DNA of 64,000 nt from an uncultured Alphaproteobacteria bacterium (GTDB lineage: Bacteria > Pseudomonadota > Alphaproteobacteria > Rs-D84), in contig CAJOGC010000005.1 of the NCBI GenBank assembly GCA_905234185.1, positions 936 through 64,935 of the forward strand, given 5' to 3'. This document shows, in pieces, positions 21,719 to 63,283 of this stretch. Below the pieces are notes generated by a model, which saw nothing but the letters and a program-made list of their open reading frames with translations, was not told where the DNA came from and ran no database searches. The position numbers and the translations under genes were made by a program. The stretch's first letter is position 1, and every line of letters begins with the position of its first letter.

Positions 21719-21820
21719 TTCATAAAATGGGCTTGATTTGTACTGCATATAAATGATAAAATGTGCACAACAGAGAGATGTATTTTGAAGTCTAAACGCA
21801 CTCATTTTTCGGGTTGTTTT

Positions 21821-24085
21821 ATGCTGGTTGCCTTGGTGGCTCTTGGCTTTGATGCCTTTGCTGTTCAGGCACCGAACCCGCGCGGTTCTTCATCGGCACC
21901 TACTTCGACGGCTCGTTCAACCGATTCGGCAAATGTATCGCGTGTTGCCGTTGGACGTTCGGCCGTCCGTTCACCGGCCCGTGGTGCGATTGTATCAACC
22001 GTCACGCGTGGTGGTGCAACTGTGGCACGGGGTGCATCGGGTACGGTGGCACGTGGTTCGACTGCTCGCACGGGGGTGTCCCCTCATAGTGCGCGTTCCG
22101 CGATTGCAATTGACACCTCTCGCGCCGGAACGGCCCGCGCGACCAAGGTGTATAGTGATATATCCAAGATTGGGGGTGGCTATGCCACCTGTCGCGAATC
22201 GTATGCGACATGCATGGATCAATTCTGTGCGAACGCGAACGACACATATCGTCGCTGTTATTGCAGTTCTCGGTTTACCGAATTTCGTAATACCGAAAAC
22301 GCACTGGACGAAGCAAAAACATTGCTGATGCGGTTCGAGGATAATAACCTTAACGCTGTTGACAAAAGCGCCGCCGAAGTTAACGCCATGTACACCGCCA
22401 CGGTGGGCGAAGCCGCGATAAAAAACGATACCAGTGCGGCGGCAAAAATGCTGGACGAAATAAGCGATTTGTTATCCGGGAAAAAGAAAACAACATATTC
22501 ATCGGGGTTGTCCTCGACTTCTCTGGGTGTTCTGTCTTTTGATTTTTCAACAGACATTGACGACATTTGGTCAGATGGGGGCAATTCTATATTTTCCACC
22601 GGACTTAACAGCCAGAATCTGTCGGAACTTGAAGGGGTCAGCCTGTATAACGCCGCGAACAAACAGTGTACTGATATTATGTCTGGCGATTGCGAAAGTT
22701 CGGCTGTGTTTAATATGGCGCGTTCTTCGTACAGTATTATGATTACCCAGGACTGTAACGCTTACCAGGCGAATGTGGATAAGAAAGTCGAATCTGTTAA
22801 ACAAGCCGTCCGTACCGCGGAAAAATATCTGCGCGAGGCACGACTTGCCGAATATCACTCACACAATAATGCCAATGTTAATGAATGTATTACCAAGGTT
22901 CGTACGGCTTTGACGGCCGACACGGCATGTGGTGCAAATTATAAACGTTGTTTGGACTATACCGGTGCTTATATTAATCAGACCACCGGTGATGCGATTT
23001 ATTCACCCCGGCTGTTCCAGTTAACCGATTTAATCAAATTATCCGGCGTCACTGACGGAAAAAGTGACATGGATGTTCTGGCTCAGAATCCAAAGTTTAA
23101 TGATTTCTTGGAATCACGAAAAATATTTGCCAATGCAGCCTTGGATACATGTCGCGACATTGCGTCCACGGTATGGAATGAGTTCAAACGGACCGCATTA
23201 ATAGAAATCGCCCAGGCCCAAGACGAGAAGATTGAAGAAGTCAAAATGTCATGCGTCAGCACCATGGCCGATTGCTATGATACCCAATCTTCGGCACTAA
23301 AGAGTTTTGATGATACAACCGCACAAATGGCGGGGGCAATATCTGCATACGCAGCAAGACAAATGTGTGTAGATAAGGTTTCGGCCTGTGCCGCGTTATA
23401 TGGGAACGATACCCCATGCCAATTTAATAATGATGGGAAATTAGCAAATGCGAGTTCTTGTGGATTAACGGCTTTACTTAAATTCGTTGACACTGTTGAT
23501 ACTGTTCGCATTACCGAAGGTTGTGAAACCGCATTACAAAATTATGCCAAAGAATTATGTACACCAACATCCGGCACGATTGGATATCCATGGAATTGTC
23601 GATTGATGTCTGCCAAAGAAATTCAAAACAATTTGACCACAATGGCGGGTACATATTGTGATTTGGGTTCGAACGCCAATATGTCTGTCAACACCGAAAC
23701 TATCATAGATGCTTTGGTAAGCGATATATCAATGCAACTTGCCGATGCCATGATGGACCAATGCCAGGCATTGGGCGGATTGTGGATAGAAGGAAACGGC
23801 TTCATCCCGAATAATTACAACGAACTAAAAGTCTATTACAGCACAGTGTACGGCAACAATCAAACATATGTCGAAAACAGCAGATTATATGGCCGTTGCA
23901 TTGAAAGTACAACTCGTGTTCTATGCGAAGCGTATAATACAGATAATGATACAAAAACAACATTGACAACATATGATGCACTTAGAGACACATGTAATTT
24001 TAGTCAGGCATGGTATGAAAAGAAATGCACCGAAGAACTTGGTGGTGTTTGGGAAAATTCAACCTGCTATATTACGGAAGAGTAA
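21821..24085 (+). CDS. Large secreted cysteine-rich protein (about 750 aa) with an N-terminal Arg/Ala/Ser/Thr/Val-rich low-complexity region
   Basis: Signal peptide MLVALVALGFDAFA. About 35 Cys. The N-terminal ~300 nt are locally GC-rich with many overlapping spurious ORFs. The start could also be ATG at 21761. Confidence 0.6.
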   Translation: MLVALVALGFDAFAVQAPNPRGSSSAPTSTARSTDSANVSRVAVGRSAVRSPARGAIVSTVTRGGATVARGASGTVARGSTARTGVSPHSARSAIAIDTSRAGTARATKVYSDISKIGGGYATCRESYATCMDQFCANANDTYRRCYCSSRFTEFRNTENALDEAKTLLMRFEDNNLNAVDKSAAEVNAMYTATVGEAAIKNDTSAAAKMLDEISDLLSGKKKTTYSSGLSSTSLGVLSFDFSTDIDDIWSDGGNSIFSTGLNSQNLSELEGVSLYNAANKQCTDIMSGDCESSAVFNMARSSYSIMITQDCNAYQANVDKKVESVKQAVRTAEKYLREARLAEYHSHNNANVNECITKVRTALTADTACGANYKRCLDYTGAYINQTTGDAIYSPRLFQLTDLIKLSGVTDGKSDMDVLAQNPKFNDFLESRKIFANAALDTCRDIASTVWNEFKRTALIEIAQAQDEKIEEVKMSCVSTMADCYDTQSSALKSFDDTTAQMAGAISAYAARQMCVDKVSACAALYGNDTPCQFNNDGKLANASSCGLTALLKFVDTVDTVRITEGCETALQNYAKELCTPTSGTIGYPWNCRLMSAKEIQNNLTTMAGTYCDLGSNANMSVNTETIIDALVSDISMQLADAMMDQCQALGGLWIEGNGFIPNNYNELKVYYSTVYGNNQTYVENSRLYGRCIESTTRVLCEAYNTDNDTKTTLTTYDALRDTCNFSQAWYEKKCTEELGGVWENSTCYITEE

Positions 24086-42269: not shown

Positions 42270-43919
42270 TTACTTAATCAATGTTTTTGCGGTGGCAATG
42301 GATTCAGGTGTTATTTCCGCACCACTTATTATCCGCGCAACCTCAGCCACCCGTTCGTCCCCGGTGATTTCGCACACAGTTGTTGTTGTCTTATTATCAC
42401 GAACACTTTTTTCAATCTTGAAATGATGATCGGCAAAACCGGCAACCTGGGCAGAATGCGTGACGACCAATGCCTGGGCAGATTCTGCTAGTTTATTTAA
42501 ACGCAATCCGACCGCCGATGCGGTCGCGCCACTGATTCCCGTATCAACCTCGTCAAAAACGAATGTATGTGCACCGGTATCCGTTATTAAGACAACACGC
42601 ATCGCCAACATTAAGCGTGCCAATTCCCCACCAGATGCCGATTTATGCAGTGGTGCAAATGGCGACCCGGGATTTGTTTTTATCATAAATGTGATGTCAT
42701 CAACACCGGTCGCAGTTGGATCAGTTTCCATCCGTTCAACCATAAAATCTGCGTTGCCTAACTTAAGGTCAGGAAATTCACCCCGTAAACGCTTTCTTAA
42801 TTCTTCGGCAGCAGCCAATCGCGCCGTGGTTAATTTAGATGCACACGCGTCAAATTTCGCACGAAAAACATCAACATCATGCGTAAGTTTCTTTAATGCC
42901 GCATCGGAATTATCAATTGTTTCCAGTTGTGCGGACATTTGATTCAATTTTTCAGGCAGTTCATCCGCAGAAACACGATGCTTTCGCGCGGCCGCACGAA
43001 TAGCAAATAATCTTTCCTCGATTTCATCAACACTGGTCATATCCATGTCGGGCGTTGTCACGTGCGCGGCAACATCCGCCAATACGTCCGCCACTTCGTA
43101 AAGTTTTTCGATTTGGTCCGCATATGGGTTTGGTTCGGTCTTTATTCTTTCCAAAATGTGCGCCACATCAAATACAAAAGAATCCAGTGATTTACCATTC
43201 GGATTCATCGCCGCATTCGCTTCAGATACAATTGCTGCGTTTTTTTCCGCGTTCATAATCGCAGTGCGTTTGTCGGATAATTCAGATTCTTCCCCGGTTC
43301 GCACATTAAGCGCACGCAATTCCGCGACATTGTGTTCAAGATATTCGCGCTCGTCCGCCGCACGTGCAACTATTTCGCGCAATTCGTGCAATCGTAAATC
43401 CGCAGCGTGATATTCGCCGTACGCGTTGTGCGTGTCCGTCAACAAATTGGAATACCCAGGAATATTAGCAATGGCAAATTCATCCAGTGCCGCAAGGTGT
43501 GTTGATTGGTCCAACAAGCGATGATTCGCAAATTGGCCGTGTATTTCCACCAATCCATCGCCAACAACATGCAATACCCTGACCGACACCGGAATATCGT
43601 TTATCCATGCGCGACTTTTGCCGTCCGCCGACAATGTGCGACGCAAAATAAGATTATCGTCCGCATCGATGCCATTTTCGGTCAAAATCGCACGAACAGC
43701 ATCGGGGACATTATCAAATTCCGCGGATACCGATGCCACATCACACCCAGAACGCACCAATCCCACATCCGAACGCGCACCCAGTGCCAATGACAACGCG
43801 TCCAACAAAATACTTTTACCCGCGCCGGTTTCACCAGTCAAAATATTAAGCCCCACGCCGAATTCTATGTTCAGTTTTTCAATTAATACTATATTAGAAA
43901 TGTTTAGTGCGGTTAACAT
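42270..43919 (-). CDS. recN: DNA repair protein RecN (SMC-like ATPase)
   Basis: Walker A GETGAGKS. Coiled-coil middle region. C-terminal signature and Walker B. Confidence 0.9.
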   Translation of the reverse strand: MLTALNISNIVLIEKLNIEFGVGLNILTGETGAGKSILLDALSLALGARSDVGLVRSGCDVASVSAEFDNVPDAVRAILTENGIDADDNLILRRTLSADGKSRAWINDIPVSVRVLHVVGDGLVEIHGQFANHRLLDQSTHLAALDEFAIANIPGYSNLLTDTHNAYGEYHAADLRLHELREIVARAADEREYLEHNVAELRALNVRTGEESELSDKRTAIMNAEKNAAIVSEANAAMNPNGKSLDSFVFDVAHILERIKTEPNPYADQIEKLYEVADVLADVAAHVTTPDMDMTSVDEIEERLFAIRAAARKHRVSADELPEKLNQMSAQLETIDNSDAALKKLTHDVDVFRAKFDACASKLTTARLAAAEELRKRLRGEFPDLKLGNADFMVERMETDPTATGVDDITFMIKTNPGSPFAPLHKSASGGELARLMLAMRVVLITDTGAHTFVFDEVDTGISGATASAVGLRLNKLAESAQALVVTHSAQVAGFADHHFKIEKSVRDNKTTTTVCEITGDERVAEVARIISGAEITPESIATAKTLIK

Positions 43920-43961: not shown

Positions 43962-44405
43962 TTACAGTTTTTCCAACACCCAATCATGCAACCACAAAAT
44001 ACATGTCTCGATTTGGTATTCTGGGTATATTTGATGCATCAGTTTTTCGTATTCGGTTAACTGCGCAACATATTTATCACGACGCGCACGCTTATCTATG
44101 TCTGTTTTATAATCCAGGATACGAACTATTTTATTTAGATCGTCTATGACCAAACGATCAATACGGCGACTTACAAATTCACCATTTATGATGCCCGCGA
44201 CCGGAACCTCTGTTCGTGCGTTTTCGACAAAAAACACCGATAAACCATCACATGATTTTACATGATTTTCAAGTTCACAATCTACTTTACCACAATCAGA
44301 TAATGTACGAACAAATGCCAATTTTTTATGCATTTCGTTTCCGGAATCTGTTGCGTATTTTATCGCATCATATTCATCTAAAAGTTCGGTTAAATTATTT
44401 GCCAT
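43962..44405 (-). CDS. addA: RecB-family (PD-(D/E)xK) nuclease domain, produced as a separate 147-aa ORF. Presumed C-terminal nuclease of AddA
   Basis: Motifs …GIINGEFVSRRIDRLVID…ILDYKTD… Its start overlaps the helicase ORF stop (ATGGCAAATAA). Confidence 0.7.
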   Translation of the reverse strand: MANNLTELLDEYDAIKYATDSGNEMHKKLAFVRTLSDCGKVDCELENHVKSCDGLSVFFVENARTEVPVAGIINGEFVSRRIDRLVIDDLNKIVRILDYKTDIDKRARRDKYVAQLTEYEKLMHQIYPEYQIETCILWLHDWVLEKL

Positions 44406-47046
44406 GTATTATCCTGATGTTATCTTCTTTGACAACCGCATCGCCGAGTGTTCCAAGCGCATCCCACAGCAATGCGTACCATGATTTTTCGTTCGCGTTC
44501 TTGTCCGATGTATGCCCATAGATATAAAGTTCATCCCGGGCGCGCGTCATTGCAACATAAAGCAACCTGTAATATTCGGCAAAACGAATATTCGACAGTG
44601 CGTCTGTTGCGGTTTCAAGATTTACGCTGGGTACCTGGCGTGGAACCCAAAGCCATGCCGGCGGTATATTTGGATCATATTCCATATCTTTTGGCATTAT
44701 GTCCGATGTTATTGGGACAACATTATCGCCCCGCGGAACCCGCAGGGTATCAATCAGAAACACAACCGGTGCTTCCAGTCCCTTGCTGCCATGAACGGTC
44801 GCGATCCGAACACCGGTCGATGCATTTATATCGCGTTTTATTTCGGAACCACCGGTTATGAACCATTTAAGAAAATGTCGCAATGTGCCAGGCTGGGTCC
44901 GTTCGTATGACAGACACAGTGTCATAAATTCTTCTAAGGGGTCTATTACCTGGGGCCCCAATGCGGACACAAAACTTTCCCGCACACCGGAATCAAATAT
45001 CCTTGAAAAAAACGAGTATGGCGCCATGGATGCCGACATATCAACAATAGATTTCAATCGTCCATGCACATCCGGATATTTTTGTTCCAGAGCATCAAAA
45101 ACTGTCATTTCTGATGTATTACCGACGCCATTTTTTGCCGTATTTTTTATTTTACATAAATCAAAAATATCGGCTTCGGTCAATCTGAAAATTGGACTTT
45201 TCAACACACAACATAAACTATAATCATCGGCCGTATTAAGACAGAATCTAACAAGATTCATAAGATCGCGTATTGCCGGAAACATTGGCAAAATAATGCG
45301 GTCTGTGCCAGCAACTTCGATATTTCGTTTCTTTAATGCCGTGACCAAAGGAACCACCATTGGATTACGATGCTGGACAAGCACCATTATGTCCCCTGGT
45401 TTATATTTTCCAGCGTCAAGTATCGATTTTATTTTGTCTGCTATGATTGAAACATATTGCTGGGTGTCGATACCGTCACCTTTTTTGGACATCATTTTTT
45501 GTAATTCGACAAGTCCGTCACCATCGCCACGAAAACAGACGTGATTATTATTGTGAAACCCCGTTGTTGCAATTACATCCGGATTGCCAAAAAACTCGTC
45601 CACTGTATATAAAATCGATGGCAATGAACGGAAACTCTGTGTTAATGGTATTTCACTTATTGTCCGCAAATTAGCCTCTATTTGACGTTTTATATCGTCA
45701 CGACTGGCTGCAAAAGCGCGCGAATCCGCGCCCTGGAAACCATATATCGATTGTTTTGTGTCCCCCACTACAAACAATGTATGTATATCGTGTTTGGTAT
45801 CACCATTTACAAAAAAATCACCGACCAGCATACGCAAAATATCCCAATGCAACGGCGATGTATCCTGGGCTTCATCAACCAAGATATGTGACAACGAAAA
45901 ATTTAATTGCGACAGCACCCAACCCATAACATCCGGTTTGGAAAAAAGTTTGCGTGTGCATAACACCAAATCATCAAAATCCAGCAAATTGCGCTGACGC
46001 TTTATATCACGATAAATATTTGTAAATGCCGCGGCTAAATCAAACAGCGCAACCGAATTCATAAAAATGTCCGCATTTATGTTATATTGATCGACATCGA
46101 AAACACGCGATTGTTCGTTGATCAAAAAACCTTGTTTTTGTATATGTTTTATCGGAGTTCTGTCTTTTGTCAAATATGCCGTCTTGTATTCATCAAAATC
46201 TATTGTTTTATCAATATACTTTTTTGTTAAATCAAACACCTTCATAAGGTACGCCGGCTGATTACCATCCGCTTTTATCTTGGCATCCAAGAAATCTGCT
46301 ATTCCGCGCAGTTCAGATTCCGGTACATCTATAACAGGGACCGAATCCAGTTTAAGAAATTTTCGCGTTGTATCAATAAAGTATTTGCGATACTCTTCGA
46401 TATTATCAACCATAAAAAAGTATTCGTATTGTTCGCTTAAAGTTTTCAGCAAAAGAGAAAGTCGTTGTTCACTTAACACATTCACAATACGCGCGAACGC
46501 ATCGCCAACACGACCATATTTAGCTGGTTCCAAATCAGACGCGTTTATAAGACGATCAAATGCCTCGTACTGCAAAACACGTTGATTCACATCAGACACC
46601 AATGTCCATGATGGGGATATGCCCGCCTCTAGCGGGAAGCGGCGCAATATTTCTTCGCAAAAACTGTGTATCGTTTTGATTTCAAGATTATCCGGATGAT
46701 CGATATACCAAAAGAAAACAGATCGTGCATGAGCAATATCATCAGCCGTCGCAGGTTTATTAAGCGCAACATCTTTCAATAATTCCACTAATTCTTCATC
46801 TGAGGCAACCGCCCAATCCCGCAATGCCCGCAAAATACGGTTGCGCATTTCACCCGCCCCGGCATTAGTGTATGTAAGGCATAATATTCCACTGTGTTCG
46901 ATATCATCAGATCTGAACAAAATTCGCAATAACCGCTGGACCAGAACACTTGTTTTGCCGGTACCAGCATTCGCCTGGACCCACACATTTCTGGACGGAT
47001 CCGCGGCATTGTCTTGTTCCGGTGATAATTCTGGTTTTTTGTTCAT
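44395..47046 (-). CDS. addA: UvrD-like SF1 helicase corresponding to the AddA N-terminal 880 aa
   Basis: Motifs GTGKTSVLVQRL and TIHSFC plus UvrD helicase motifs. No addB adjacent. Confidence 0.82.
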   Translation of the reverse strand: MNKKPELSPEQDNAADPSRNVWVQANAGTGKTSVLVQRLLRILFRSDDIEHSGILCLTYTNAGAGEMRNRILRALRDWAVASDEELVELLKDVALNKPATADDIAHARSVFFWYIDHPDNLEIKTIHSFCEEILRRFPLEAGISPSWTLVSDVNQRVLQYEAFDRLINASDLEPAKYGRVGDAFARIVNVLSEQRLSLLLKTLSEQYEYFFMVDNIEEYRKYFIDTTRKFLKLDSVPVIDVPESELRGIADFLDAKIKADGNQPAYLMKVFDLTKKYIDKTIDFDEYKTAYLTKDRTPIKHIQKQGFLINEQSRVFDVDQYNINADIFMNSVALFDLAAAFTNIYRDIKRQRNLLDFDDLVLCTRKLFSKPDVMGWVLSQLNFSLSHILVDEAQDTSPLHWDILRMLVGDFFVNGDTKHDIHTLFVVGDTKQSIYGFQGADSRAFAASRDDIKRQIEANLRTISEIPLTQSFRSLPSILYTVDEFFGNPDVIATTGFHNNNHVCFRGDGDGLVELQKMMSKKGDGIDTQQYVSIIADKIKSILDAGKYKPGDIMVLVQHRNPMVVPLVTALKKRNIEVAGTDRIILPMFPAIRDLMNLVRFCLNTADDYSLCCVLKSPIFRLTEADIFDLCKIKNTAKNGVGNTSEMTVFDALEQKYPDVHGRLKSIVDMSASMAPYSFFSRIFDSGVRESFVSALGPQVIDPLEEFMTLCLSYERTQPGTLRHFLKWFITGGSEIKRDINASTGVRIATVHGSKGLEAPVVFLIDTLRVPRGDNVVPITSDIMPKDMEYDPNIPPAWLWVPRQVPSVNLETATDALSNIRFAEYYRLLYVAMTRARDELYIYGHTSDKNANEKSWYALLWDALGTLGDAVVKEDNIRIIHGK

Positions 47047-47141
47047 TTATGCCCTTGCTTTATGAAAAAGATTCTAGTATAAATCATTACGAACTGCAAG
47101 AGCGATATTACATATCGTTAATATTTCGGGGGGAAAGACAA

Positions 47142-49079
47142 ATGGAAGGTGTTTTATCAAGCAATATTTTCGTGTATATTTGTGGTGGATTAGGATTTTT
47201 ATTAATAATCGCGTTAATCGCATTGTTTTTCATTTCACGCAAATCTCAACTGGTTATGCAATCTTTATTGGATATTATGTTGCGCCCAGAAAGTGCGCGC
47301 GTTGGCGACGCGACCCGTGTATTAAACTCCATTATGGCCACGGAAATCGCAAAAATAGAACAAAATTTTCGCATAATGTGCGAAACCATGAACGGTCAAA
47401 TCGCACATGCAAACGAACTTGAAAACCAACTGACCAAGCAAAACGAAAAATTGCTGTCTTTGGCCGACGCGGCGACAAAAAAAATGGCCCAGATGTCCGA
47501 CAGATTGGACAACACGCTTAACGGTATGAATACGATTGTCGGTTCACAGTCATGGAATGATGTCACAAATGCATCAGACCGGTTTTCGACCAATGTCAAT
47601 GAGTTGCTTAATAAAATTGATAAAACAACGAACGATACAACCGACCGCATCACCCAGATTCAACAGCAAATAGATTCCTGGGTTGAAACCAGCACCGATT
47701 TAAGTGGCCGGCTGGGCACTGAATTTGAATCTAATGCGACCCAGATGACCGATATCACACAAAAAGCGGCAACAATGCAACAACAACTTGAATCTTTGGC
47801 GCAGACGACCGCGGACGGGTTCACAAATGTCAAAAATGCATCGGCCGAATATACCGATATCATGGAAAAGAATAATGAAATGCTGGATAACCATCTTAAT
47901 AAACTTGATGCATTTTCCAAAATGTCAAAAAAACAGTTAGCCAGTCAAACAAATATTATAACCAACACCGCAAATGTTGTCGCCGGCCAGGTCCGACTGA
48001 CCGAGACATCCATTGAAAAACAAATTCGCAAATTATCCGACGCTGTTGACGCTTTGACCGCGTCCGCCACAGAAACCGAGGGGTCTGTGCGTGGGCTATC
48101 AACCGAATTAACCAATTTAACCAATCGGTTCAACCACGAAATCAAAGACTTTGCAACAGAAGTTGTTTCGGAATTAAAGACCGTGTCCGGGGTCGCAAAT
48201 ATTACACTTGAAAACACAAAAACCGCGGCAAACGCGTTTTCAGAGTCTGTTCGCACAATGGGAACCGGTGTCCGCGAAACTTTGATTGAAATGAATACCG
48301 CGCACACACAATTAACAGGCCAATCAGAAACGCTGATTAAAATGTCACGTGAAACCACGGAACAATTGCAACCACTGTCTGAACTTATCGAAAAGTATTA
48401 CGCCGCCCTGCCCGACCTGTCGCGTGATTCCGTGGCTGCGGGTGAAACGCTTGGTCGAATTGTCGCAGAATTAAATACCAGTATGGAAATGATGAAATCC
48501 ACGGTTAATGAATCAACCGATGCAATTTCCAAGTCGGCAACTCAGTTAGAAGAACTGGCCGGCGATTCAAGACAGCAAATGATTGATTTAATGTCGGACT
48601 ATGCCAAGGCCGTTGACACCATGCAAACACTGAATAAACAGATGATGGTGGCACGCGCGACGGCACCTATGGACGCGATTAAATCCACCCCGACGGACAC
48701 CCAGTATGGCCGCGTGAGCACAAGCGATTTCATTAAACAAAGCGAAAAAGTTTTTGGAAAGTTGCACGAACAATCAATTGATTTAACACGCGCGACCGGC
48801 GTCGACATCCCAGACAATATATGGAAGGCATATCATGACGGCGATACCGCTATATTTTCCAAATGGTTGGCTAAAATGCTAACCGCGGCGGATAAAAAGC
48901 AAATCCGTGACATGTTGAAACGCGACAGTGTTTTCCGGTCCCAGTCGTCACAATTTGTACGCAGTTTTGATAAAATAATGTCTGCATCGGAATCTGTGGA
49001 CAACGCAGAAAAAGTTGCGACGGCGTTGCTAAAAACCGACCTGGGACGGATTTATACCGCACTGAAGGGAAACATCTGA
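47142..49079 (+). CDS. Membrane-anchored long coiled-coil protein (645 aa)
   Basis: N-terminal TM (IFVYICGGLGFLLIIALIALFFI) followed by about 600 aa of heptad-like Q/N/T/L-rich sequence. RBS GGGAAAG. Confidence 0.55.
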   Translation: MEGVLSSNIFVYICGGLGFLLIIALIALFFISRKSQLVMQSLLDIMLRPESARVGDATRVLNSIMATEIAKIEQNFRIMCETMNGQIAHANELENQLTKQNEKLLSLADAATKKMAQMSDRLDNTLNGMNTIVGSQSWNDVTNASDRFSTNVNELLNKIDKTTNDTTDRITQIQQQIDSWVETSTDLSGRLGTEFESNATQMTDITQKAATMQQQLESLAQTTADGFTNVKNASAEYTDIMEKNNEMLDNHLNKLDAFSKMSKKQLASQTNIITNTANVVAGQVRLTETSIEKQIRKLSDAVDALTASATETEGSVRGLSTELTNLTNRFNHEIKDFATEVVSELKTVSGVANITLENTKTAANAFSESVRTMGTGVRETLIEMNTAHTQLTGQSETLIKMSRETTEQLQPLSELIEKYYAALPDLSRDSVAAGETLGRIVAELNTSMEMMKSTVNESTDAISKSATQLEELAGDSRQQMIDLMSDYAKAVDTMQTLNKQMMVARATAPMDAIKSTPTDTQYGRVSTSDFIKQSEKVFGKLHEQSIDLTRATGVDIPDNIWKAYHDGDTAIFSKWLAKMLTAADKKQIRDMLKRDSVFRSQSSQFVRSFDKIMSASESVDNAEKVATALLKTDLGRIYTALKGNI

Positions 49080-56744: not shown

Positions 56745-58502
56745 ATGAAAGAATATATTTTGCCTTTTCGTGATTTGGTCGTGAATCCTGGTTTAACCGT
56801 TCCGATTTATATTGATAATCCGCTGTCTGTGTCGTGTATAGAAGCCGCAAGCAAAAACGGTGGCCGTATCGTCCTTGTTGCACAGCACTGTTGGGGTTAT
56901 CCCGCCAACGAGGTTGATATATACAAGGTTGGCACAATCGGCGAAATCGCCCAGGTTTTACGCATGCCGGACGGTTCATTGCACGCAATTGTTCGCACCA
57001 CAAGCGCGGTCCGTCTTTCCGGCATTGTGGTTGAAAACGGCATCTTTATGGGCGACATAACACCTATCGAAATACTAGACGACAGTGAATTTGACCAAAC
57101 TATCGCCCTGCGCGATAAAATAGCCAATAATATTCAATCAATGTCCACGGCCCGCAAACTTAAAATCGACAAATTACGCACTGTTATTCAGTCTTATCCT
57201 TTGCCGGCCTTTGTTGATACCGTTGTTCAAATGCTGGACATCGATACAGATGTCGCGATTAATATTCTTTGTGCAACGACATGGCGCGAAAAACTAATCA
57301 TTTTGCTGGAGCAAGTCAATTTGATGGCGGAAACCATGAAAATCGAGGATTCTATTAATCGTCGCATTAATCAACAAATGGAGAAAGGCCGTCGAGAGGC
57401 GATTTTACAGGAAAAAATGCGCGCAATTCAGGTCGAAATGGGCGAAAACACCGAAGAAATGGATGCAGAAAACCTGCGCGAACGCATCGAAAAGTCCCAC
57501 ATGTCTGCGGACGCCAAAGAAAAAGCACTGTCTGAATGGCGACGCATGCGCACCCTGTCCCCGATGTCGAACGAAGGCGGACTGTTGAAGGCATACTTGG
57601 ACGAAATGTTGTCTATGCCATGGAATAAGTATGACAAGCAGCCCATAGATATTCAGGCGGCCCGCGCGATTCTTGACAGTGAACATTCCGGAATGGATGC
57701 GGTCAAAGAACGCATTTTGGAACATATTGCCGTTATGAAAAAAACCGGCAAAAACAGTGGCAGCATTTTATGTTTCGTCGGCGCGCCCGGTGTTGGAAAA
57801 ACATCGTTGGGGAAATCTATCGCCGCCGCACTTGGTCGAAAATATCAACGCATATCACTTGGCGGTATTTCTGACGAGGCGCATTTCCGCGGGCACCGCA
57901 AGACCTATATCGGTGCACAAACGGGCCGCATTATGGACGCGCTTAAACGAAGCAAATCAAATAACCCCGTAATCGTGTTGGACGAAATTGATAAAATGAC
58001 GCGTGATTTTCGTGGTGATCCGGAATCTGCATTGTTGGAAATATTGGACCCGGAACAAAACAAAAACTTCCGCGATCATTATCTTGAGGTTGATTTTGAT
58101 CTGTCTAATGTTCTTTTTATTGCAACAGCAAACAGTCTGAACTTTTCCAATGCGTTAAAGGATCGTATGGAAATCATCGAAATTCCGGGATACAGCATGG
58201 ATGAAAAGGTTCGCATTGCCCGCGAACACTTGATTAAACGCGCGGCAAATGACACCGGATGGGCGGTTGAAAACATCACCATTTCGGACGATGCAATTCG
58301 CCATATCATTCAAAATTACACCAGCGAAGAAGGTGTTCGCCAATTACAACGCGAATTGACCGCTATTCTGCGCCGTGAATTGTTAAAGAACGACGGCAAC
58401 GACAAACCAACGGATTTTACACCAAATAAAATCGACGATTTATTATCACTGCAGCATTCCGCTGGATTTAGTAAAAAAATAGGATTTGGAGTAAGATTAT
58501 GA
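56745..58502 (+). CDS. lon: Lon-like protein with a Lon N-terminal domain and an AAA+ module that ends before the serine-protease domain
   Basis: Walker A GAPGVGKTS, Walker B VIVLDEIDKM, sensor-1 FIATANS. The ORF stops at 585 aa. Downstream ORFs are not protease-like. Confidence 0.78.
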   Translation: MKEYILPFRDLVVNPGLTVPIYIDNPLSVSCIEAASKNGGRIVLVAQHCWGYPANEVDIYKVGTIGEIAQVLRMPDGSLHAIVRTTSAVRLSGIVVENGIFMGDITPIEILDDSEFDQTIALRDKIANNIQSMSTARKLKIDKLRTVIQSYPLPAFVDTVVQMLDIDTDVAINILCATTWREKLIILLEQVNLMAETMKIEDSINRRINQQMEKGRREAILQEKMRAIQVEMGENTEEMDAENLRERIEKSHMSADAKEKALSEWRRMRTLSPMSNEGGLLKAYLDEMLSMPWNKYDKQPIDIQAARAILDSEHSGMDAVKERILEHIAVMKKTGKNSGSILCFVGAPGVGKTSLGKSIAAALGRKYQRISLGGISDEAHFRGHRKTYIGAQTGRIMDALKRSKSNNPVIVLDEIDKMTRDFRGDPESALLEILDPEQNKNFRDHYLEVDFDLSNVLFIATANSLNFSNALKDRMEIIEIPGYSMDEKVRIAREHLIKRAANDTGWAVENITISDDAIRHIIQNYTSEEGVRQLQRELTAILRRELLKNDGNDKPTDFTPNKIDDLLSLQHSAGFSKKIGFGVRL

Positions 58503-58876
58503 GCGAACAAGCAACAAAAACAGCCACATACCCCGATCTGGAAAATGGCCAAATGATAACTATCATAACCGATAAAGAAACGGCCAAAGCCATCCATGAA
58601 TACAACAGTATTTGTAATCAAATTCAGTCATTCAAAATAGATTCTCAGGTGATAACTGGTCTTAGTGGCCAGATTTGTGAAATATACAAAGCACAATCAC
58701 CAAAACTGAAAATCTGGTGCATAAGAAAATATCTGCCCTTGATTGACGACGATGTCTATGAATGTCGTATCGAAAGAAAGAACGACAAAGCAAATAAAGA
58801 CCCTGAATTGATTCTGGGTGGTGTGGAATACTTGTATTATAAGCTGCTTAGTAAAAACAGCGGGCGGGCAAAATGA
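58499..58876 (+). CDS. Hypothetical 125-aa protein (ATGA overlap with the lon-like gene)
   Basis: ORF only. Confidence 0.4.
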   Translation: MSEQATKTATYPDLENGQMITIITDKETAKAIHEYNSICNQIQSFKIDSQVITGLSGQICEIYKAQSPKLKIWCIRKYLPLIDDDVYECRIERKNDKANKDPELILGGVEYLYYKLLSKNSGRAK

Positions 58877-62011: not shown

Positions 62012-63283
62012 TCAAATATCATTGATAAAATCGACGACGCGCTGATCAAATATAACATCCCGCGGTCGCAACGGCGCAGACATGTGAATATCGGCCGCAC
62101 TGCGCGTACGCGACAGCGCGACATATGTTTGTCCATGCGCAAACGCCCCGCGCGAAATATCAACAATGACAGCATCTAAAGTTTTACCTTGGGCCTTATG
62201 TATCGTCATCGCGTACCCCAGGTTCAGCGGAAATTGTTTGTATGACCCAACCTCGGTTTCAATAATTTTGTCGTCCGCATCGCGCGAATATTCTATTTTT
62301 TGCCACTTTTCGGGCTTTACGACAACGACATCGTGCGTTTTATTTAGTAATTGGACAATTATTTCATGCGCCCCAAGTTGCTCTACAATACCCATTGATC
62401 CATTGTGCCATTTATCACCATTTTTAACAAAAACGACCAGTGCACCCTGCTTTAATGTCAGATTCATTGGCGCCGGTACATCGCGTTCAGAAAAATTGCC
62501 CGTAATTTCGCCGTTGTATGTCACATCTGGTGCAGCGATTTGATTTAACCTGTCGTCATTAATGCGTTCCGCAACCGCCCGAAACGGTGTAATTATAACC
62601 GCATTTGCGCGCCGCGATGCATCATCTATGCGACAATTATTGAAAAAATCCAGCGCCGATGAATCGTTTCCACGCAATCTCATAAGATTATCCAACAATT
62701 TATCGTCTTTTTGGCGATAAACTGTTCCGAAATTAAATGGAATAAATTCCGCACGCCGATATGCGTGCGAATCAAAGAAATATGCATTAGGGTGTTCGTA
62801 TTCGGTTGCATAGTATTTTTCCGCATCCCGCGTTATAACCGGCGGTAATTGAAACAAATCGCCAATCGCAACGATTTGGATTCCGCCAAACGGTTCATTA
62901 TTTCGCCGCGCCGCCCGCATAAGGTAATCCATTGCATCCAATAAATCCGGTGCAACCATCGATATTTCATCAATTATTAAAACATCGGTTCCACAGAGGA
63001 TATTTCGCGGCTTCGCCTTTAATTTCAACAATTCCATCATGATGAAATCGCGCGGCTGAATCTGGAACAACGAATGTATGGTTTGCCCCCCGACATTAAG
63101 TGCCGATACCGCGGTCGGACATGCACAAATAATGCGTTTTTTCGATGCGGATTTAATATAATTTACAAAAGTCGATTTTCCGGTTCCCGCCGGGCCCAGT
63201 ATAAGGATGTTAGATCGCGTATTTTCTAGTGTATTGAACGCGGCCATTTGCGATGGATTCAAAATCGGAACGATTGAAGACAT
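62012..63283 (-). CDS. Pif1-family SF1B DNA helicase
   Basis: Walker A GPAGTGKST. Motif II DEISMV. Pif1-signature GDLFQLPPV. 423 aa. Confidence 0.8.
   Translation of the reverse strand: MSSIVPILNPSQMAAFNTLENTRSNILILGPAGTGKSTFVNYIKSASKKRIICACPTAVSALNVGGQTIHSLFQIQPRDFIMMELLKLKAKPRNILCGTDVLIIDEISMVAPDLLDAMDYLMRAARRNNEPFGGIQIVAIGDLFQLPPVITRDAEKYYATEYEHPNAYFFDSHAYRRAEFIPFNFGTVYRQKDDKLLDNLMRLRGNDSSALDFFNNCRIDDASRRANAVIITPFRAVAERINDDRLNQIAAPDVTYNGEITGNFSERDVPAPMNLTLKQGALVVFVKNGDKWHNGSMGIVEQLGAHEIIVQLLNKTHDVVVVKPEKWQKIEYSRDADDKIIETEVGSYKQFPLNLGYAMTIHKAQGKTLDAVIVDISRGAFAHGQTYVALSRTRSAADIHMSAPLRPRDVIFDQRVVDFINDI

Follow-up and report, generated by a model that had tools for sequence, protein, structure and literature searches.

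A probable natural fission of the helicase-nuclease AddA in Candidatus Enterousia and related Rs-D84 Alphaproteobacteria

Enzymes of the RecB/AddA type are the main entry to recombinational double-strand-break repair in bacteria. AddA is the helicase-nuclease subunit of one such enzyme, AddAB, and in Bacillus subtilis its helicase and nuclease are connected through an extended linker (PMC3321194). In a stretch of 64,000 nucleotides (nt) from an uncultured Alphaproteobacteria bacterium (contig CAJOGC010000005.1; 'the window' hereafter), the corresponding coding sequence is divided between two overlapping open reading frames (ORFs), one for a helicase of 883 amino acids (aa) and one for a nuclease of 147 aa. 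Has a gene recently been disrupted here, or is this a genuinely two-piece AddA? A preliminary description of the locus, made from the sequence alone, left both answers standing. The analysis reported below favours the second, and we consider it quite likely that AddA has undergone a conserved natural fission in Candidatus Enterousia and related Rs-D84 Alphaproteobacteria. Candidatus Enterousia is a genus of the uncultured order Rs-D84, the genomes of which are mostly smaller than 1 Mb (PMC12306168).

Two ORFs with the parts of AddA

The helicase gene occupies 44395..47046 on the minus strand and its product ends ...NIRIIHGK*; the nuclease gene, at 43962..44405, lies on the same strand. These coordinates, and the overlap between the two ORFs, were as first described. 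The overlap, ATGGCAAATAA (44395..44405, minus strand), is 11 nt long and runs from the nuclease ATG through the helicase TAA. In helicase codons the minus strand at the junction reads ...ATC AGG ATA ATA CAT GGC AAA TAA, with the nuclease ATG (44405..44403) within CAT-GGC, while 44397..44395 is the TAA that ends the helicase ORF. Relative to the latter, the nuclease ORF is read in the +1 frame, and a TAA stands in the nuclease frame two codons 5' of the ATG, so both frames are open over 14 nt only. A Shine-Dalgarno (SD) sequence for the nuclease ORF, AGGAT (44411..44415, minus strand), is found inside the helicase codons Arg(AGG)-Ile(ATA), and 5 nt separate its T from the ATG.

The 883-aa protein is an SF1A UvrD-like helicase (superfamily 1A) with the Pfam domains PF00580 (UvrD-helicase), PF13361 (UvrD_C) and PF13538 (UvrD_C_2). 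In NCBIfam it matches TIGR02784 (addA_alphas) far better than any other model, covering positions 2 to 895 of 1138 with 628 bits; the second best is the Gram-positive AddA model with 206 bits. As AddA does, it has the N-terminal SF1A helicase with motifs I-VI. The motifs GTGKT, VDEAQD, VVGDTKQSIYGFQGA, HGSKGLE and YVAMTRAR are intact; all SF1 motifs are kept among 48 helicase homologues, in which GTGKT, DEAQD and YVAMTRAR are invariant. The AlphaFold2 model of the protein, with a predicted local distance difference test (pLDDT) score of 79.6, has B. subtilis AddA chain A as its top match in the PDB (4CEJ_A, E 6.9e-31), and the structural ranking descends from AddA chain A to RecB and then to UvrD/PcrA. 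RecB is thus structurally below AddA, and the RecB model TIGR00609 gives 161.5 bits against a cutoff of 696. The best 120 clusters of helicase homologues are each of 865-891 aa, and none has the nuclease domain PF12705. Neither recC nor recD was seen in the 64-kb window. A compact 423-aa PIF1/RecD2-like SF1B helicase is encoded at 62012..63283 on the minus strand; by score it is not a RecBCD-type RecD.

The 147-aa protein is a complete minimal RecB-family PD-(D/E)XK domain. It matches TIGR02784 over positions 1042-1131 (E 3.7e-14, 52 bits) and has no Pfam match. RecB-nuclease motifs had been reported in it, and both SRRIDRL and ILDYKTD are there. Across 83 aligned nuclease homologues the residues H26, E66, S79-R80-R81, D83, R84, D98-Y99-K100, D102, E118 and Y119 are invariant, and Q115 of the QxxEY motif nearly so; together they make up motifs I-III and the QxxxY motif of the RecB family. 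No conserved cysteine is found among the 83 homologues, so the nuclease is AddA-like rather than AddB- or Cas4-like: it shows the E/D/D-x-K/QxxxY motifs of the AddA nuclease with no iron-sulphur (Fe-S) cluster, and it lacks the four cysteines that ligate 4Fe-4S in Cas4 and other Fe-S PD-(D/E)XK nucleases. Its AlphaFold2 model (pLDDT 91.4) finds AddA chain A as the best Foldseek match (4CEH_A, 4CEI_A, 4CEJ_A and 3U44_A; prob 1.0, TMq 0.54-0.63), followed by secondary matches to ACE1/Cas4, RecB and RecE. A search of PDB chain sequences with the nuclease profile gave nothing significant (E >= 0.29), and AddA was found by fold comparison only.

The canonical alphaproteobacterial AddA (TIGR02784) and the B. 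subtilis AddA of AddAB (PDB 3U44, 4CEH, 4CEJ) have the same SF1A layout of domains 1A/1B/2A/2B and the same RecB-family nuclease fold and motifs, and they provide the best profile and structural match for both parts. Neither part reaches the TIGR02784 cutoff of 860.75 bits, however, and the sum of the two scores also falls below it. In the public annotation at NCBI the 147-aa genes are 'hypothetical protein' and the helicases are 'UvrD-helicase domain-containing protein', and pathway reconstructions of these gut symbionts based on it would miss a nuclease-competent AddA.

Conservation of the split and position of the break

A scan of species-representative genomes with the nuclease (tblastn) gave 212 positive loci, 80 of which were kept; all of these are from gut or rumen metagenome-assembled genomes (MAGs) labelled Alphaproteobacteria or Candidatus Enterousia. 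A helicase ORF overlaps the nuclease ATG by 4-20 nt in 78 of the 79 kept loci that have upstream sequence, and it is about 850-910 aa long where the contig is long enough. For the window and the 78 loci together, the overlap is 11 nt in 27 cases, 8 in 22, 20 in 12, 17 in 12, 14 in four and 4 in two. The split is kept across the 78 loci down to 44% nuclease identity. The protein databases tell the same story, with 254 clusters of stand-alone nuclease homologues of about 147 aa; among the best 120 of them, 119 are of 140-150 aa and one is a 91-aa fragment, with identity down to 46%. When 1.84 billion representatives were searched with the nuclease profile, the top clusters (about 48) were nearly all short proteins, the longer entries among them being only three truncated pieces of 332-478 aa, and the first full-length fused AddA was P0167 (1007 aa, E 1e-27). 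Every aligned nuclease homologue begins with Met at one shared column. The recurrence of the arrangement is far beyond chance, and the comparisons of homologues show both halves to be under purifying selection.

These data bear on the possibility that the split is an error of sequencing or assembly, or that a frameshift has recently inactivated the gene and left a pseudogenised AddA in a decaying genome. The genomes are indeed reduced to below 1 Mb (PMC12306168), a 1-nt indel would in principle join the two frames, and the lon gene of the window is likewise without its C-terminal domain. On the other hand, the junction is identical across independent assemblies: five contigs assembled independently carry the same 883+147 pair, and twenty carry a related 870+149 pair. 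The 78 loci are split with their catalytic residues invariant and their helicase motifs intact, the SD is under selection (see below), and the linker between the domains has been deleted rather than merely interrupted. An error or a pseudogene is accordingly the least probable of the explanations, with next to no chance of being right, and it is already refuted by the comparative data. The recent disruption that had been offered as one of two readings can be dropped, the split being clade-wide and recurring in independent assemblies.

A few loci depart from the common pattern. L016 and L028 have an ATGA overlap with another frame relation, and L092 has a 1-nt TAATG overlap. A 252-aa gene stands between the helicase stop and the nuclease ATG in L056, and in L091, a 2-kb metagenome contig, an unrelated ORF precedes the nuclease gene and no helicase gene adjoins it. 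L016, L028, L056 and L091 thus count in favour of two physically separable genes. In one related MAG (L007, 6834..10005) the helicase homology is broken between two frames, its pieces lie about 490 nt apart, and the nuclease ORF 3' of them is intact; the broken helicase could be an insertion or a pseudogene.

The loci L056 and L091, where the genes are apart or the helicase gene does not precede, lend something to a different view, in which the 147-aa protein is an autonomous nuclease working with RecN, with another helicase or in a Cas4-like manner, and the 883-aa protein is a plain UvrD-like helicase. The gene recN is an equally conserved neighbour, no AddB was found nearby, and Foldseek also matches the nuclease to ACE1/Cas4. 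The overlap and the SD/stop architecture in 78 of 79 loci, however, tie the expression of the two genes together; the nuclease and the corresponding domain of fused AddA relatives are orthologues and have the N-terminal helix bearing H26 in common; and its best structural match is AddA, not Cas4, with the Fe-S cysteines absent. An autonomous nuclease is therefore unlikely, although it is the strongest of the competing explanations.

The position of the break was examined by aligning the concatenated window proteins with the fused P0167, P0134, P0144, P0173, P0184, P0255 and P0248. The junction aligns to a variable low-complexity linker of the fused relatives, rich in Pro, Ser, Thr and Lys and roughly 30-110 residues long, which comes after the last helicase strand (...G-I/V-x-x-I...) and before the first nuclease helix (...L-x-E-F/L-L...K-x-A-T-x-x-G-x-x-x-H). 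Alignment to full-length AddA had been proposed as a check, and the junction does fall in the natural inter-domain linker. The split forms are without this flexible linker. Where AddA is a single polypeptide with an extended linker, the window has two polypeptides, whose ORFs overlap by 11 nt, and the linker is missing; TIGR02784 positions 896-1041 are replaced by about 69 residues over the two proteins, and the total is about 1030 aa compared with about 1140-1230 aa for the canonical protein.

The history of the split may be more complicated than a single clean fission event, which is unsupported: in a rough neighbour-joining tree the fused P0134, P0144 and P0167 nest among the short split forms, and P0144 is 66% identical to the split P0142. 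The distant fused P0184 and P0255 have the canonical alphaproteobacterial order tsaE-APH-NTP_transferase-addB-addA, whereas the nearer fused P0167 and P0173 have no adjacent addB. In the locus of the fused P0134 (L087), at about 430-465, the codons ATC GTA CGG ATA CAA TGC contain CGGATACAATG. Its likeness to the SD, spacer and ATG of the split forms suggests that it might be a relic of a re-fused split ancestor.

Translation of the two ORFs

The SD of the nuclease ORF is conserved. At positions -10 to -6 of the nuclease ATG, the letters A, G, G, A and T are found in 74, 75, 75, 72 and 75 of 78 loci, respectively, and in the related loci the distance of the SD is fixed to the ATG and not to the stop. 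The Arg codon within the SD is AGG in 74 of 76 loci, compared with 125 of 3838 Arg codons (3.3%) elsewhere in the same helicase ORFs. Such a bias shows selection at the nucleotide level, as expected for a Shine-Dalgarno sequence. Among the closest fused relatives this codon corresponds to CGG, ACC, GAA or TTA and never to AGG. Of the 60 putative genes in the window, 23 have an SD-like motif before them, compared with a background of 3.3%. This selected SD in the 3' end of the helicase gene, the overlap of 4-20 nt and the placing of the junction in the inter-domain linker support the alternative that the preliminary description had set beside disruption, a genuinely two-piece AddA. No conserved RNA structure (coupling hairpin, frameshift stimulator or occlusion of the SD) was predicted at the junction; the alignment used included one sequence (L071) taken at wrong coordinates, which should be disregarded.

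Could the two ORFs nevertheless be an annotation illusion, with programmed +1 ribosomal frameshifting in the overlap producing a single fused AddA of about 1030 aa? The nuclease ORF is +1 and overlapping in most loci. The +1 shift site of prfB also has an SD-like element 5' of its stop codon, and the SD-like element before the helicase stop recalls it. Programmed frameshifting of the prfB or dnaX type, however, uses a conserved slippery site, a fixed frame and a stimulatory element at a set distance from the shift site, and none of these was found. Neither the sequence of the overlap nor its length (4-20 nt) is constant, the codon preceding the stop varies, and L016 and L028 use another frame. 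A whole gene lies between the ORFs in L056, and an unrelated ORF precedes the nuclease in L091. In the window a stop in the nuclease frame comes two codons before the ATG, and the region open in both frames is of at most 23 nt in 53 of 80 loci. The fixed spacing of the SD to the ATG rather than to the stop, the lack of a conserved RNA structure and the shared Met column at the start of all nuclease homologues also speak for initiation and against a shift, and we give frameshifting only a very small probability.

AddB, assembly of the enzyme and neighbouring genes

The partner of a canonical AddA is AddB, which in alphaproteobacteria is normally encoded immediately 5' of it. In the window the place where alphaproteobacteria normally carry addB, 5' of the helicase gene, is taken by a divergent gene for a coiled-coil protein, as had been noted; profile scans and tblastn found no addB there. 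The absence of an AddB upstream of the helicase was also part of the preliminary description, and locally it holds. With the canonical AddB of L085 as query, tblastn found none in the 64-kb window or within 10 kb on either side in 80 related loci (E >= 0.57). The scans of all large window ORFs against NCBIfam and Pfam found none either, and no large ORF was left unexplained. The canonical flanking genes tsaE, APH, NTP_transferase and trxA gave no tblastn match. A protein-database search with the same AddB returned typical alphaproteobacterial AddBs only (120 clusters listed), which is uninformative for this clade. A 774-aa ORF (21761..24085, plus strand) was considered as a divergent AddB and rejected: its product is Cys-rich with a hydrophobic, signal-like N-terminus and has no nuclease or helicase motifs. 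The same protein contains an Ala/Arg/Ser/Thr-rich low-complexity stretch and matches nothing in Pfam or NCBIfam; only two of 80 related loci, most of which end before that position, have a homologue.

In Helicobacter and Campylobacter the AddA of AddAB (PRK13909, 'RecB-like helicase') is compact and addB is unlinked. AddA is one polypeptide there, unlike here, and the PRK13909 models match both parts weakly, with 187 bits against a cutoff of 650. An AddB may be encoded elsewhere in the present genomes, or it may have been lost altogether. In the latter case DNA ends would be processed without AddB by a minimal machine consisting of a free AddA motor and a detachable nuclease subunit, possibly with RecN. 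We put the loss of AddB forward as a tentative suggestion that is rather less probable than its converse. The missing linker does not argue for it: P0184, which has an adjacent AddB, has a linker of about the same length as fused relatives with no adjacent AddB. If AddB is lost, the machine would lack both a subunit that scans for Chi and a second nuclease, its own nuclease would have to dock on the helicase itself, and resection of the 5' strand would be done by something else. The split AddA would gain in interest were AddB truly absent.

How might two polypeptides do the work of one? Ribosomes ending the helicase would re-initiate at the nuclease ATG, or the SD would recruit new ribosomes, and such coupled translation would yield roughly equimolar motor and nuclease made side by side. 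The free nuclease would then dock non-covalently on the helicase, or on a complex of the helicase with a partner, and once docked could cut the 3'-ended strand leaving the motor, in the manner of the tethered nuclease of B. subtilis AddAB (PMC3321194). The split would be tolerated if docking, and not a covalent tether, positions the nuclease domain. Severance of this kind is plausible because an experiment on severed E. coli RecB showed that docking suffices. RecB(1-927)CD and the free RecB nuclease domain form a complex, and are proficient in the Chi response, RecA loading, repair and recombination in vivo (PMC10954480). The severed RecB is likewise separated at the tether and functions by non-covalent docking, but there the split was engineered, all tether residues were retained and docking depends on RecC, whereas the present split is natural, conserved, tether-less and in AddA.

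Several observations weigh against a coupled, two-part AddA of this kind. The translational coupling of helicase and nuclease is deduced from the sequence. The earlier opinion that the junction represents coupling rather than a random frameshift is accordingly sustained in its second part, the random frameshift being rejected, and is a sequence-based proposal in its first. No structure that would occlude the SD was predicted, and a promoter-like match overlaps the junction, so some independent expression of the nuclease is possible. The two polypeptides would have to associate into one enzyme, a step that we infer. In the solved complexes the RecB nuclease domain docks on RecC (PMC10954480); by analogy the nuclease domain of AddA would dock on AddB, yet no addB was found locally.

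A conserved fission of AddA is nevertheless the reading that we prefer. The helicase and HD nuclease of some type I CRISPR systems are separate genes, Cas3' and Cas3''. There too, helicase and nuclease are fused in most lineages and are two adjacent genes in others, although the proteins belong to unrelated families, the helicase being SF2 rather than SF1A and the nuclease HD rather than PD-(D/E)XK. A literature search turned up no report of a natural split in AddA or RecB. A comparable split was previously made only artificially, in E. coli RecB, and here it is natural and conserved. The need for tethering of the nuclease to the motor is actively debated. In the 'nuclease swing on a tether' model the length of the tether is critical (PMC6326792), while trans-complementation of severed RecB argues against the need for a tether (PMC10954480). 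The split AddA is a natural counterpart of these tether experiments: its occurrence without a tether at 78 or more related loci and in some 250 protein clusters shows that the severed state is tolerated and has been maintained by evolution. It offers a ready system in which to study the docking partner of the nuclease and the control of its activity in the absence of a tether.

The neighbourhood of the split gene is conserved, with the coiled-coil gene divergent from the helicase gene and the nuclease gene and recN following the latter. The gene recN (42270..43919, minus strand; Pfam SMC_N and AAA_23) lies 42 nt 3' of the nuclease gene, 79 of 80 related loci have a recN homologue, and the addA of the fused P0144 (L088) is also followed by recN. 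Possibly recN and the split addA form one transcription unit for double-strand-break repair; there is, however, a promoter-like site within the 42-nt gap before recN. The coiled-coil gene is on the plus strand at 47142..49079, the start at about 47142 being that of a gene caller (L082) and the longest ORF being 46950..49079. Its product of about 645 aa has a hydrophobic N-terminal segment and only sub-threshold matches, SMC- and MCE-like, in Pfam and NCBIfam; it is conserved and divergent beside the helicase gene in 72 of 80 related genomes. The protein is probably membrane-anchored and, on present evidence, does not belong to the enzyme.

In the region 56745..58876 (plus strand) a 585-aa Lon-like protein has the substrate-binding, AAA+ and lid domains (TIGR00763, 2-564 of 795) and no S16 peptidase domain, and the next ORF, of 125 aa at 58499..58876 and with no Pfam match, has an ATGA overlap with it. 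The Lon-like gene could be a second case in this genome of a truncated or split multidomain gene. In related genomes the carboxyltransferase of acetyl-CoA carboxylase is fused into one protein of about 580-610 aa (Zn_ribbon_ACC, Carboxyl_trans and ACCA), as seen in L089/L090 (1094..2833) and also in L061, L070 and L072, a gene fusion in the same clade as the fission of AddA.

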